Virus record (IMG/VR): IMGVR_UViG_2703718790_000002
Strand: one strand, 5' to 3'
From: a virus
Taxonomy: Duplodnaviria > Heunggongvirae > Uroviricota > Caudoviricetes
DNA length: 4,073 bases
Shown here one piece after another: positions 1 to 4,073 of the stretch. A model generated the notes under the pieces. It worked only from the letters and a program-made list of their open reading frames with translations. It was not told the origin of the DNA and did no database searches. Every line of letters begins with the position of its first letter. Position 1 is the first letter of the stretch. Made by a program: the position numbers and the translations under genes.

Positions 1-564
1 CGGGTTACCTGCAGCCAGCGGTGCCGGTGCCCCCTGCATCAGACGATCCAGCGCAGTATCACTGCGCGCCTGTGCACTCTGTGGTGCTGCGGCCAGAATG
101 CGGCGGGCCGTTTCCACGGTCATACCGGGGGTTTCTGCCAGCACGCGGGCCTGTTCTTCGCGTCCGTGAGCCTCCTCACAGTTGAGGATCCCCATAATGC
201 GGCTGTTTTCTGCCGCAACCGCAGCGGTGATCTGCGCGTTCACGTCCGGCTGCGCCGCGCTGGCGTTTTCGCCCTCCGTCGCTGGCACCACGCCAGTAAC
301 GTCAGCCTGCGAAGCAGTGGCTGAAACAGTTGTTGATTGAGTCTCTTTGGTCATTCGCCCTCCTGAGAGACGGGATTTACGTGCATCCAGTGCATCACGC
401 ATAACGGTGATCGCATCGGTGCTGTTGACAAGTTCATCAGCCAGTCCGGCATCAATGGCCTCCTGACCGCTGTACACTGCAGCCTCGGTATCCAGCACAG
501 CCTGCACGGACAGGCCGGTATATGCCGACACCTTCTGCGCAAACATCCGGCGGGTTGCATCCAT
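1..564 (-). CDS. nu3: Scaffolding protein Nu3, nested in-frame in the 3' part of gene C; 3' end beyond the window start
   Basis: In-frame ATG at 564..562 giving MDATRRMFAQKVSAYTGLSVQAVLDTEAAVYSGQEAIDAGLADELVNSTDAITVMRDALDARKSRLSGGRMTKETQSTTVSATASQ… The position matches the recalled lambda Nu3 start once the 143-bp deletion is allowed for. The frame is open to position 1. Confidence 0.6.
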   Translation of the reverse strand, partial: MDATRRMFAQKVSAYTGLSVQAVLDTEAAVYSGQEAIDAGLADELVNSTDAITVMRDALDARKSRLSGGRMTKETQSTTVSATASQADVTGVVPATEGENASAAQPDVNAQITAAVAAENSRIMGILNCEEAHGREEQARVLAETPGMTVETARRILAAAPQSAQARSDTALDRLMQGAPAPLAAGNP

Positions 565-823
565 CCGGGACTGCAGTGTTTCCCGGACATCACCCGGTAG
601 ATGGCTGTAGGGGTTGCCATCCACCTTATGGCTGCCGCTGTAAATCAGCGTGATTTCCACGCCCTGTTTCTCCAGGGCAGCACCGTAATTACTGTGAGCC
701 ATCATGACGCCGATGGAGCCTGTCCGGGCGGTCTGCGTGACCAGACGCCGGGAGGCGGCGCTGGCAAGCAGCTGACCTGCACTGCAGTTCATGTCGTTGG
801 CCAGCGCCCATACCGGTTTTATG

Positions 824-1135
824 TCAACCCGAATACGGCTGCAGCGCCCGCGTCCGGCTGACCAGCGTACCGGACACCGGCAGCACGGCGATGCCGTTCA
901 TGACCTGATAACTCCGGGCCTGTCGTGGTCCGTCATCATCACCGGATAACGCCAGCGCCGCGGGTGCCTCTCCGGCAGTCAGGCTGTCGCCGGATACTGC
1001 ATCCGTCAGGCGGCTGATCCCAAGCTGGCCTGCAAGCGCACAAAAGAAAACCCGCGCATAGGCGGGTTCAAGCATCAGCGGCTCATTAAAAGCCATGCTG
1101 GCAATATGCGGGAGATTACGCAGCTCTGCTGTCAC
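824..1135 (-). CDS. C: N-terminal fragment (103 aa) of the head protease/minor capsid protein gpC, ending at a premature stop
   Basis: GTG at 1135..1133 preceded by GAGGAGGAG (1148..1140). Translation VTAELRNLPHIASMAFNEPLMLEPAYARVFFCALAGQLGIS…SRTRALQPYSG, then TGA at 826..824. The 20-nt overlap with the portal 3' end matches the lambda B/C arrangement as I recall it. The track ORF 824..1270 includes a spurious 45-codon upstream extension. Confidence 0.8.
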   Translation of the reverse strand: MTAELRNLPHIASMAFNEPLMLEPAYARVFFCALAGQLGISRLTDAVSGDSLTAGEAPAALALSGDDDGPRQARSYQVMNGIAVLPVSGTLVSRTRALQPYSG

Positions 1136-2718
1136 TCTTCTCCTCCTCTGTTGATTGTCGCAGCCCGGATTCAAATGCCGCAGCCGCCCAGGCGGGCGGT
1201 TTAAGACCAGCTGCGCGGCGCTCCATCGTTTCACGGACCTGCTGGGCAAAAATTTCCTGATAGTCGTCACCGCGTTTCGCGCACTCTTTCTCGTAGGTGC
1301 TCAGTCCGGCTTCTATCAGCATCACCGCTTCCTGAACTTCTTTCAGACCATCGATGGCCATACGACCGGAGCCTATCCAGTCGCAGTTCCCCCAGGCACT
1401 GCGGGCTTCCTGAAAGCTGAAGCGCGCTTTTGAAGGTAACGTCACCACGCGGCGAACGATGGCCTCTTCCAGCCAGCACAGAAACATCTGGCTCGCCTGA
1501 CGGGATGCGACGAATTTTCGCCGCCCCATAAAGTACGCCCACGACTCGTTCGCACTGGCCCGTGCCGTGGAGTAGCTCATCTGGGCGTAATTCCGGGAAA
1601 GCTGCTCATACGAGACACCCAGCCCGGCAGCGATATACCGCAGCAGTGACTGCTCAAACACGGAGTAGCCGTTATCCGTGTCCTGAGCCGTCTGCAGGTT
1701 CAGTGAGTCCCCCGGCATCAGGTGCGGCACTTTTGCGCCTCCCAGACGGACCGGTGCTGCGGAAGTAATACGCGGCAATTTCACCAATCCAGCCGGTCAG
1801 CCTTTCCCGCTGCTCCTGACTGTTCGCGCCCAGAATAAAATCCATCGCTGACTGCGTATCCAGCTCACTCTCAATGGTGGCGGCATACATCGCCTTCACA
1901 ATGGCGCTCTGCAGCTGCGTGTTCTGCAGCGTGTCGAGCATCTTCATCTGCTCCATCACGCTGTAAAACACATTTGCACCGCGGGTCTGCCCGTCCTCCA
2001 CGGGTTCAAAGACGTGAATGAACGAAGCACGACCGCCGGGTAACTCGCGGGGTATCCATGTCCATTTCTGCGGCATCCAGCCAGGATACCCGTCCTCGCT
2101 GACGTAATATCCCAGCGCCGCACCGCTGTCATTAATCTGCACACCGGCACGGCAGTTCCGGCTGTCGCCGGTATTGTTCGGGTTGCTGATGCGCTTCGGG
2201 CTGACCATCCGGAACTGTGTCCGGAACAGTCGCGAGGGACGGGTATCCCAGGTGGCCTGAACGAACAGTTCACCGTTAAAGGCGTGCATGGCCACACCTT
2301 CCCGAATCATCATGGTAAACGTGCGTTTTCGCTCAACGTCAATGCAGCAACAGTCATCTTCGGCAAACTCTTTCCATGCCGCTTCAACCTCGCGGGAAAA
2401 GGCACGGGCTTCTTCCTCCCCGATGCCCAGATAGCGCCAGCTTGGGCGATGACTGAGTCGGAAAAAAGACCCGACGATATGATCCTGATGCAACTGGATG
2501 GCGTTGGCGGCATAGCCGTTATTGCGTACCAGATCGTCTGCGCGGGCATTGCCACGGGTAAAGTTGGGCAGCAGGGCTGCATCCACACTTTCACCCGGTG
2601 GGTTCCACGCCCGCAACTGCCCACCAAATCCGCTGCCACCGCCGTGATAACCGGCATATTCACGCAGCGATGTCATGCCGTCCGGCCCCAGAAGGGTGGG
2701 AATGGTGGACATTTTCAT
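1116..2718 (-). pseudogene. B: Portal protein gene (gpB-like) interrupted by a +1 frameshift, apparently a single-nucleotide insertion
   Basis: ATG at 2718..2716. The first 318 codons (2718..1765) read as portal protein, [14 protein letters not shown]…LTGWIGEIAAYY. That frame then runs 30 junk codons to a stop at 1672. The portal sequence continues in another frame from the codon at 1763..1761, SAAPVRLGGAKVPHLMPG…EEEKSDSRAA, to a TAA at 1118..1116. 318 + 215 = 533 aa, the lambda portal length, so one extra base in the A/T doublet at 1763-1764 explains the break. The track's 348-aa and 223-aa ORFs are the two halves. Confidence 0.85.
1140..1148 (-). promoter_or_regulatory. Strong Shine-Dalgarno site (GAGGAGGAG) for gene C, embedded in the portal 3' coding sequence
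   Basis: The reverse complement of 1136..1150 is caGAGGAGGAGaaga, followed by the GTG at 1135..1133. In the portal frame the same bases encode …TEEEKSD…. Confidence 0.6.
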
Positions 2719-2921
2719 ACATAAAATCCTGCTGGTCCCCTGCGTCGCTGTGTCATGCCGGTCTGCACTTCCAGCTCAGCAATGTATTTTTTCAGGTCAG
2801 ACACGGAAGTGGTCGTAAACTCCACTCGCCGTCCGTCTTTCTGTACCGTTGCCACCCGTTTTCCTGTCATCAGGTCATGCAGTGCCGCACGGGCAGCGGC
2901 AAGTTCTTCCTGTCGCGTCAT
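2715..2921 (-). CDS. W: Head-tail joining / head completion protein gpW (68 aa)
   Basis: 68-aa [71 protein letters not shown], the same length as lambda gpW and a near match to it from memory. ATG at 2921..2919 overlaps the gpA stop. A Shine-Dalgarno-like GGAGAGGA sits 3 nt upstream. The stop at 2717..2715 overlaps the portal ATG. Confidence 0.9.
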
Positions 2922-4073
2922 TCATCCTCTCCGGATAAGGCACGGGCGTATTCTGCCAGTGTTTTCTTGTTGGTTGCTGCACCATCCTCTTCCTGCAGGC
3001 TCGCCAGCAGTGCACTGAGATCCAGCTGCCAGCGGGAAATACTGATGCGCAGCGCCGCCAGCGCATAAACGAAGCAGTCGAGCGCCTCATTGCGTCGCTT
3101 TTTGCTGTCCCACAGTATTTTTTTCCTGCCATCCACCCATTTTTCGACCTGCTCTTCAGCAGTCAGTTGCTGCGCTTCGGTAAGATCAAAAATATCCGGG
3201 TTATTCGGGAAGTGAACGGCACCGGGAAGCGGTTCATCCCCTTCCGGCGTCAGTGTGAAGCGGTTATAAATCTGCTCTTTCGCGGTATCCGTACCGATTT
3301 CGGTAAGGTAAACCCCGTTTTTGTTTCGCTTACGTGGCATGCTGGCCACCGGCTTTCCGTAGACGGATGCCCCTTTAATGGGGATCACCCGGAACAGCCC
3401 ATGTTTTTTCGAGCGTTCATACACAATGGTCGGGTCAATCCCGCCAGTATCCCAGCAGATACGGGATACCGACATTTCTGCACCATTCCGGCGGGTATAG
3501 GTTTTATTGATGGCCTCATCCACACGCAGCAGCGTCTGTTCATCGTCGTGGCGGCCCATAATAATCTGCCGGTCAATCAGCCAGCTTTCCTCACCCGGCC
3601 CCCATCCCCATACGCGCATTTCGTAGCGGTCCAGCTGGGAGTCGATACCGGCGGTCAGGTAAGCCACACGATCAGGAACGGGCGCTGAATAATACTCTTT
3701 CCGCTCTGCCATCACTTCAGCATCCGGACGTTCGCCGATTTTCGCTTCCCACGTCTCACCGAGCGTGGTGTTCACGAAGGTTTTACGTTTTCCCGTATCC
3801 CCTTTCGTCTTCATCCAGTCTTTGACAATCTGCACCCAGGTGGTGAACGGGCTGTACGCCGTCCAGATGTGAAAGGTCACACTGTCAGGCGGTTCAATCT
3901 CTTCACCGGATGACGAAAACCAGAGAATGCCATCACGGGTCCAGATCCCGGTCTTTTCGCAGATATAACGGGCATCAGTAAAGTCCAGCTCCTGCTGGCG
4001 GATGACGCAGGCATTATGCTCGCAGAGATAAAACACGCTGGAGGGGTCATCCGGCGTCCATTTGAGGCCAAAC
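2918..4073 (-). CDS. A: Terminase large subunit (gpA-like), 3' portion; the 5' end lies beyond the window end
   Basis: Minus-strand ORF open from the window edge to a TGA stop at 2920..2918. The translation (…[12 protein letters not shown]…, ending …[16 protein letters not shown]) matches my memory of the lambda gpA C-terminal region. The track's M at 4036 is an internal GTG (Val), not the true start, and the frame stays open upstream (…[12 protein letters not shown]) to the window end. The stop overlaps the W start as ATGA. Confidence 0.9.
2925..2932 (-). promoter_or_regulatory. Shine-Dalgarno-like site for W (GGAGAGGA on the minus strand), inside the 3' end of gene A
   Basis: The reverse complement of 2922..2934 reads ccGGAGAGGAtga, immediately followed by the W ATG. 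Confidence 0.5.

Follow-up and report, generated by a model that had tools for sequence, protein, structure and literature searches.

A lambda-type prophage head and DNA-packaging block whose two lesions lie on sites that vary between prophage copies

The window, by which we mean the whole stretch of 4,073 nucleotides that was analysed, represents an ordinary head and DNA-packaging block of a lambda-type prophage, a slice of the A-W-B-C/Nu3 region. It comprises the following features, positions being given in window coordinates.

2918..4073, minus strand: 3' part of the terminase large subunit gene A, C-terminal 385 of 641 codons including the nuclease domain; continues past the right window end
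2715..2921, minus strand: gene W, head-tail adaptor gpW, intact, 68 aa, same as the reference W
1116..2718, minus strand: portal gene B, interrupted by a +1 frameshift
1763..1764, no strand: +1 lesion, AA in place of the single A or C found in every relative
1..1135, minus strand: gene C, S49 prohead protease, GTG start at 1135, broken by a deletion; the left window end removes the last 42 nt
826..827, no strand: deletion junction, 143 reference bases (C codons 104-151) missing
1..564, minus strand: Nu3 scaffold gene, own ATG at 562-564 within the C reading frame, 188 of 201 codons in the window, intact

As an earlier note on this DNA had proposed, the window corresponds to the reverse complement of positions 1481..5695 of lambda (NC_001416). 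In the global alignment the two are flush at both ends, with 92 mismatches in 4072 aligned columns (97.7% identity). Exactly two gaps occur, 143 reference bases being absent at 826|827 and one surplus base being present at 1763/1764, and the length balance drawn up in that note closes exactly (4215 - 143 + 1 = 4073). According to the ORF map and the lambda annotation, gene order (A-W-B-C, with Nu3 nested in C) and overlaps (4 nt between A and W, 4 nt between W and B, 20 nt between B and C) are those of lambda. The genes themselves, their strand, the nested Nu3 start and the Pfam families are likewise shared with lambda, from which the window differs by the substitutions, the two gaps and the GTG start of C. 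The families recognised are PF20454, PF02831, PF05136 and PF01343 (S49 peptidase), the window's own match to the last of these comprising just the part which overlaps Nu3. The A portion, counterpart of lambda A (711..2636), matches PF20454 (GpA_nuclease, E=1e-74) and is identical to the C-terminal end of WP_001027379.1 of E. coli 01_3327. W matches PF02831 (gpW, E=2.9e-37), its exact protein being recorded in 42,674 blocks of the assembly collection, while the 188-aa Nu3 portion, counterpart of lambda nu3 (5132..5737), is contained unchanged in the reference C/Nu3. Terminase, W and the start of Nu3 had been described as intact, and the A portion, W and the Nu3 portion are indeed identical to intact references. 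The open reading frames on the plus strand are antisense shadows of the four genes, and an Rfam scan of both strands of the window returned no match. The module is a well-known one, among the best-studied in virology, and nothing new was found in it, which agrees with the initial view that no novel system is present; the biological weight of the locus is small.

Both lesions fall, as first read, in genes for prohead assembly, the extra base in B and the loss of 143 nt in C. In B, the native frame is kept to residue 318 of 533. The N-terminal ORF (1672..2718) encodes 348 aa, 318 of which are native, and the C-terminal remainder (1116..1762) lies in a different frame, no complete reading frame for the portal being present in the window. 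The PF05136 profile (Phage_portal_2) is split between the two, positions 2-257 matching the first ORF and positions 276-354 the second. Once repaired, the 533-aa B is a common allele found in at least 1000 contigs, and it matches the solved structure of the lambda portal (8k38) along residues 1-533. At the lesion the window reads GCGGAAGT where the lambda side reads GCGGAGT. The base concerned is the common polymorphic site R1906 in portal codon 319 (TCC/GCC) and lies outside any homopolymer run, which sets the lesion apart from the typical long-read errors of the E. coli draft assembly L011. Among 3,178 E. coli records matching an 81-nt stretch with the extra base none exceeds 98.8% identity, and exact scans of the collections gave no match for it while the intact site, which served as positive control, did match. 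Nor was the 348-aa portal fragment found at the protein level, a result which is weakened by the NCBI pipeline listing frameshifted genes as pseudogenes without a product.

In C, an N-terminal ORF (824..1135) runs for 103 aa and ends at a TGA (window 824-826), so that a complete reading frame for the protease is not present in the window either. In the intact reference C, the S49 domain comprises residues 150-297 and the S49 fold aligns with SppA from residue 81. Ser166, which we take to be the nucleophile of gpC (Medina et al. 2010, cited in PMC3224144), is located downstream of the window's stop; it is not in frame with the C start and can be reached from internal starts only. The junction base 827 is an A, which matches neither reference flank (C at both); relatives carry C or T at this position, to which the A adds a third variant. 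The deletion is flanked on either side by a site of common polymorphism, R826 (A/T) and R970 (C/T). Direct repeats with a spacing of 143/144 nt were not found around the deletion, and an origin by slippage or microhomology was rejected, as the sole shared motif, GTCA at a distance of 142 nt, predicts another junction. The junction itself was not found in any collection searched. The very same truncated C product of 103 aa has been recorded at ten places, which does not signify the same deletion: nine are contigs ending there, and at the tenth (L011) the loss of one G from a GGGG run yields the same product. Since the cluster of this product holds partials of many lengths, a match to it carries no weight.

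If the sequence is taken literally, the portal would be cut after residue 318 and the protease after residue 103, ahead of the S49 domain and Ser166. Such a phage would form no proheads by itself but would go on making terminase, W and the Nu3 scaffold. We consider it scarcely credible that the lesions are real and bypassed, for instance by programmed +1 ribosomal frameshifting in B or by a shortened but functional protease, leaving the module functional. The downstream reading frames do stay open, which is the sole support for this idea, but the +1 site (UAC UUC CGC) offers no recognisable shift-prone or stop context, is carried by no relative and matches no RNA family. The deletion in C, for its part, leads into an immediate TGA with residues 104-151 gone, and the product of any restart would be missing the beginning of the S49 fold.

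The closest relatives of the window are prophages of O26/O145-type Shiga-toxin E. coli (STEC) and Stx1a-converting phages. To the phages LC645428-LC645437 it is 99.7-99.9% identical; LC645429 shows 3 mismatches and both gaps, and E. coli E2865 and 01_3327 show 1-2 ordinary mismatches. Both gaps recur against LC645429, PhiR70_1, E. coli 01_3327 and E2865; the earlier note had named a reference with the same indels as evidence against its reading, and the references carry neither. Over 4,072 aligned bases, 0-3 ordinary substitutions separate the window from O26/O145-type STEC prophages and Stx1a phages as compared with 92 from lambda, so the source is not lambda itself. Apart from the lesions, no private change is seen in these bases, 278G and 2169C being natural alleles. 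Identical alleles of W, of the A and Nu3 parts and of the repaired B are present in the relatives (LC645428-LC645437, E2865, 01_3327 and O26:H11 11368), in all of which B and C are intact and neither lesion occurs. For the Stx1a-converting phages this likeness concerns the head module, the stx1a region lying outside the window. In 01_3327, a near-identical module is located in an nleC-carrying prophage, no stx being annotated within the stretch fetched. Judged by sequence, the lineage is common in O26/O145-type STEC and is shared by Stx1a-converting phages and effector-carrying non-Stx prophages. The module was found in 3,578 of 5,426 complete E. coli genomes, about two thirds, at up to 8 places per genome. 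Scans for the lesions, which are marked by the k-mers CCGGTTTTATGTCAACCCGAATACGGCTGC and GGTGCTGCGGAAGTAATACGCGGCAA, covered complete genomes, one genome per species, viral contigs and JGI metagenomes. Both lesions are absent from the 5,426 complete E. coli genomes as well as from the phage, plasmid, viral-contig, metagenome and species-representative collections.

This background also bears on a deliberate alteration, i.e. an engineered crippled phage, a packaging construct or an edited sequence, which we regard as very improbable. The disabling of two adjacent essential genes within a natural background and the non-templated junction base would suit such an origin. The backbone, however, is that of an STEC prophage, 92 substitutions away from laboratory lambda, which led us to reject a lambda cloning vector or packaging strain as the source. 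Neither lesion shows a scar, cassette, restriction site or in-frame design, plasmid records contain the intact form only, and arbitrary edits would miss natural variant sites.

It is with such sites that the lesions coincide. All three lesion boundaries (R826, R970 and R1906) are polymorphic, and five consecutive common SNPs (826/874/919/970/1906) split the haplotype of the window from that of L003, L004, L006, L008 and L009. For random placement, the coincidence of boundaries and SNPs, which was spotted post hoc after inspection of the data, has p=1.5e-4 (exact) or 1.2e-3 (+/-1 nt) with a panel picked independently of the lesions, and p values of 2.5e-6 to 8.5e-6 against the 19 common SNP sites. 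Among the E. coli draft assemblies L011-L020, breaks and a scaffold gap are found at the very bases damaged in the window, R970 and R1906: contigs L012-L014 and L017-L020 terminate just before R970, and the scaffold gap of L020, which differs from its closest references at one (polymorphic) site in 3,358 aligned bases, starts exactly at R1906. While these drafts exhibit breaks, N runs and homopolymer indels, a closed 143-nt loss or a doubled non-homopolymer base is seen in none of them.

Because the breaks sit exactly where sister prophage copies differ, and because slippage repeats and other private changes are lacking, we consider it probable that the lesions are sequence-reconstruction errors in a multi-copy prophage repeat rather than mutations of the phage. 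The observed coincidence with variant sites would, we infer, stem from an error made with mixed copies. Of the three origins which the earlier note had offered, an assembly or consensus error is, on account of the same coincidence, the best supported, a crippled construct being disfavoured by the STEC-like background and a defective prophage appearing doubtful. Two or more near-identical prophage copies would reside in the same host, and errors of assembly, bridging, polishing or consensus calling would arise where these copies differ. Each lesion would then equal a variable stretch swapped for AA, namely the SNP-bounded haplotype stretch R826-R970 and the single SNP R1906. What counts against a reconstruction error is that we know of no specific program which converts a variant stretch to AA. 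Real frameshifts in B or C may, moreover, also occur in complete genomes, as in L009 with its loss of a single base in gene C, and this observation, too, speaks against an artefact, as does the position of the +1 away from homopolymers. A type-II copy (L006) is also unlike the window at 28, 2311, 2600, 3824 and 3836, where the window is undamaged; the putative co-resident partner would therefore have to differ in the 826-1906 tract only. Copies A and B of E2865, the two of its five that were compared, are the same at the lesion SNP sites and differ at two other sites only. Two particular versions of the error were ruled out. The deleted 143 nt cannot be a unitig shared between neighbouring SNPs, as the type-II haplotype varies inside it at 874 and 919, and the window cannot be a graph-bounded whole contig, since the bases past either end do not vary or have no SNP beside them; its ends are arbitrary cuts. 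Reads should be consulted whenever a multi-copy prophage region seems to contain a double knock-out, before pseudogenes or decay are diagnosed, and comparing lesion ends with inter-copy variant sites provides a cheap test for artefacts.

As written, inactivating lesions in essential genes are present, B and C being plainly broken; their placement on inter-copy variant sites makes their reality doubtful. We therefore regard it as possible, if rather unlikely, that they are true, very recent mutations of a defective lambdoid prophage which makes no proheads alone. In a polylysogenic STEC host, induction and replication of this prophage could still take place, and near-identical co-resident prophages could provide B and C in trans for its packaging or repair it by recombination. 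Lambdoid prophages that are defective in morphogenesis are the rule in STEC. Those of O157 Sakai (Sp4, Sp9, Sp15 and others), which share near-identical morphogenetic genes, can complement each other and are packaged by such complementation (Asadulghani et al. 2009, PMC2669165). Like the window as written, the Sakai prophages show portal or head defects in a lambda-like morphogenesis region. Their defects, in contrast, come from a finished genome and were tested experimentally, whereas the lesions of the window are unique and known from sequence alone. The number of module places per genome makes helpers plausible, the complete genome L009 has its own gene C lesion, and the otherwise unchanged background of the window suits a recent event. 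Random mutations, however, would have to hit three variant sites (p about 1e-3 to 1e-5), and two independent indels would have to occur with zero private substitutions in the window. The deletion lacks flanking repeats, its junction base is untemplated, and the lesions were found in none of the 5,426 complete genomes nor in the other collections. In mutation-accumulation studies of E. coli, substitutions are about tenfold commoner than indels, which also counts against genuine mutations. A selective benefit is not obvious, as knock-outs of B and C would presumably not stop lysis on induction. If the lesions are real, the window represents one more helper-dependent defective prophage from an STEC-like host.

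We give very little credence to a related view according to which a single homeologous gene conversion between two co-resident prophage copies gave rise to both lesions at once. A heteroduplex lying between R28 and R2311 would contain five mismatches (826/874/919/970/1906), and faulty processing at these would lead to a mismatch-bounded deletion and to the +1 at the isolated mismatch. Like the reconstruction error, this view requires a partner copy with T826/C874/A919/T970/C1906 that agrees with the window at all other sites from R28 to R2311. Were gene conversion the cause, recombination between prophages would directly inactivate prophage genes and leave a recognisable signature.

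All long open reading frames of the window lie on its minus strand, and a global alignment sets the whole window end to end against lambda 1481..5695 in reverse complement (92 mismatches in 4,072 columns, 97.7% identity). The same type of alignment with LC645429 leaves three mismatches, and both comparisons show an identical pair of gaps: 143 reference bases are absent between window positions 826 and 827, and one base is added at 1763/1764. The length sum is exact (4215 - 143 + 1 = 4073), which bears out the description in the earlier note of a lambda-type module with two lesions. 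The lambda annotation and the ORF coordinates give the following layout:

2918-4073, minus strand: A, 3' part
2715-2921, minus strand: W
1116-2718, minus strand: B
1135 leftwards, minus strand: C
564 leftwards, minus strand: Nu3

The gene overlaps of 4, 4 and 20 nt are the same as those of lambda. GpA nuclease, gpW, lambda-family portal and S49 peptidase were all matched in Pfam, while an Rfam scan of both strands of the window gave no match. The module is already known and, as had been supposed, does not represent a new system.

A megablast search against 50,697 phage records yielded 80 which cover at least 80% of the window; among the matches listed, all span 4215 bases in two pieces, the top ones being ten Stx1a-converting phages (99.7-99.9% identity). 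The module is matched in 3,578 of 5,426 complete E. coli genomes, in up to 8 places per genome, and the best-matching genomes are O26/O145-type STEC. Hence, the presumed lambda origin holds as to type but not as to lambda itself: the 92 substitutions rule out laboratory lambda as the source, and the window derives from a STEC-type lambdoid prophage. Of the two E. coli E2865 module copies compared, copy A differs from the window solely in 278G, in the base at the junction and in the lesions themselves. The alleles 278G and 2169C are found in other relatives too. The latter concerns a Ser/Gly polymorphism at portal codon 184, where Gly is shared by the window, lambda, PhiR70_1, locus L007 and copy A of E2865, and Ser is found in most STEC copies; E2865 copies A and B are unlike each other at this codon. 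The repaired portal of 533 amino acids is a common allele present in at least 1000 contigs. In strain 01_3327 (L010, NZ_CP074961.1 3342156-3386370) a near-identical head module lies inside a lambdoid prophage with nleC, which codes for a type III effector, and also with tRNA genes and a SASA-family esterase; stx annotation is absent from the fetched stretch of this prophage. Consequently, the window is not assignable to an Stx phage specifically, as one and the same head block is used by Stx1a phages and by prophages that carry effectors. The prophage module is also contained in H99 (CP061244.1), which is deposited as an E. coli plasmid; its length of 1.41 Mb suggests a piece of a chromosome or a wrongly labelled replicon.

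The extra A keeps the portal frame through residue 318 of 533, the product stops after 348 amino acids, and the portal Pfam profile is split across two ORFs. The deletion eliminates codons 104-151 of C and places a TGA immediately after codon 103, upstream of both the S49 domain (residues 150-297 of the intact protein) and Ser166. W and the parts of A and Nu3 inside the window match intact references exactly, in agreement with the earlier impression of an intact terminase, W and Nu3 start. Since in lambda prohead assembly starts from an initiator made up of portal B, protease C and scaffold Nu3 (PMC3224144), a phage harbouring both lesions would be unable to make proheads unaided. Functional bypass via recoding is without support, and its probability is negligible. 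It is possible, if rather doubtful, that the lesions are real and the window represents a recently disabled lambdoid prophage. Prophages of O157 Sakai with head defects are still packaged, the proteins being supplied by other resident prophages whose morphogenetic genes are almost the same (PMC2669165); given the copy number of the module, real lesions would lead us to expect packaging via co-resident helpers here as well.

DNA-level searches for the lesions covered complete E. coli genomes, plasmids, one-genome-per-species contigs, viral contigs and metagenomes, the E. coli genomes being limited to complete ones. A 120-nt query across the deletion junction matches E. coli genomes and plasmids only as two pieces spanning 262-263 bases, and an 81-nt query across the +1 site finds 3,178 matching records, none of them above 98.8% identity. 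Exact scans for both junctions gave no match in one-genome-per-species contigs, IMG/VR viral contigs and JGI metagenomes, while the intact +1 site, serving as positive control, is present in 10 viral contigs. No protein record was returned by a look-up of the 348-residue frameshift product, NCBI-annotated pseudogenes leaving no protein on record; the W protein, by contrast, is recorded in 42,674 blocks. Recorded C fragments of 103 amino acids were rejected as instances of the same deletion, as they stem from contig ends or from a one-base loss in a GGGG run (contig L011).

A variant map of the relatives reveals that the lesions are bounded by common polymorphic sites (R denotes positions in the intact reference). 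R826 (A/T) is the final base retained ahead of the deletion, R970 (C/T) is the first base past it, where the window shows a third state, A, and R1906 (A/C), in portal codon 319, is the base doubled in the window. With sites 874 and 919, which fall within the deletion, they form five consecutive sites dividing the haplotype of loci L003, L004, L006, L008 and L009 (type-II) from that of the window. In a repeat test on 11 loci picked without regard to the lesions (146 polymorphic sites, 3.5%), a 143-nt deletion and an insertion placed at random produce the coincidence with p=1.5e-4, or 1.2e-3 with one-base slack, and against the 19 sites that vary in four or more of these loci with p 2.5e-6 to 8.5e-6, values which are indicative only since the hypothesis was framed after the data had been seen. 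Despite this, the effect size is large. Viewed as strings, R826-R970 and R1906 are each replaced by AA, i.e. a variable stretch is swapped for AA twice.

Of the origins formerly considered, namely a prophage defect, a construct or an assembly error, an assembly or consensus error thus emerges as the likeliest, and we regard the lesions as probably a reconstruction artefact. Reads from several near-identical prophage copies would conflict exactly at inter-copy variant sites, and assemblers, bridgers and polishers would have to decide there, so that errors would start and end on such sites; independent real mutations have no reason to do so. Moreover, the junction base is untemplated, no repeat able to drive slippage was found, and across 4 kb there is no further private change. 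Two indel events thus face zero private substitutions, while in E. coli mutation-accumulation data substitutions are about tenfold commoner than indels. Against a reconstruction artefact stands that no responsible program or step can be named. The window is undamaged at 28, 2311, 2600, 3824 and 3836, further sites at which a full type-II copy departs from it, so the conflicting copy would have to differ in the 826-1906 tract alone; such a copy was not found, and the two compared E2865 copies agree at the lesion-bounding sites. Furthermore, the window ends are arbitrary cuts rather than branch points, and the +1 is unlike the homopolymer errors seen in L011. That a single homeologous gene-conversion event between co-resident prophages made both lesions at heteroduplex mismatch sites appears very unlikely. 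Deliberate alteration is similarly improbable: the backbone is natural STEC, neither scar nor design is apparent, and the lesions coincide with natural variant sites.

The bases damaged in the window, R970 and R1906, are also break points in draft assemblies. Draft contigs L012-L014 and L017-L020 all stop just before R970, the G/A site of gene C codon 103, and a scaffold gap in L020 (run of N, 2564-2768) starts exactly at R1906, the A/C site of portal codon 319, this contig differing from its closest references at one (polymorphic) site in 3,358 aligned bases. These variant sites between co-resident prophages recur as assembly break points in independent E. coli drafts. A second scaffold gap in L020 (2947-3005) has a duplicated stretch of 22 nt (TGACGTTACCTTCAAAAGCGCG) at its flanks and constitutes a scaffolding artefact of the public record. 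L011 (UGDL01000001.1, GCA_900449705.1, 2300-7400), a 983-kb contig, has 12 indels of one base each in A, W, B, C and the sequence beyond them, nearly all in short G or C runs, by which A is cut into three ORFs, W is fused to the first portal part and the portal is split, a pattern typical of uncorrected long-read consensus errors and not of prophage decay. Finally, in the complete genome CP017249.1 (L009) one C is lost from a CCCC run in gene C at about locus coordinate 12450, where only a Nu3-sized product (201 amino acids) is called; this loss may either be a genuine frameshift of the protease or stem from a sequencing error.
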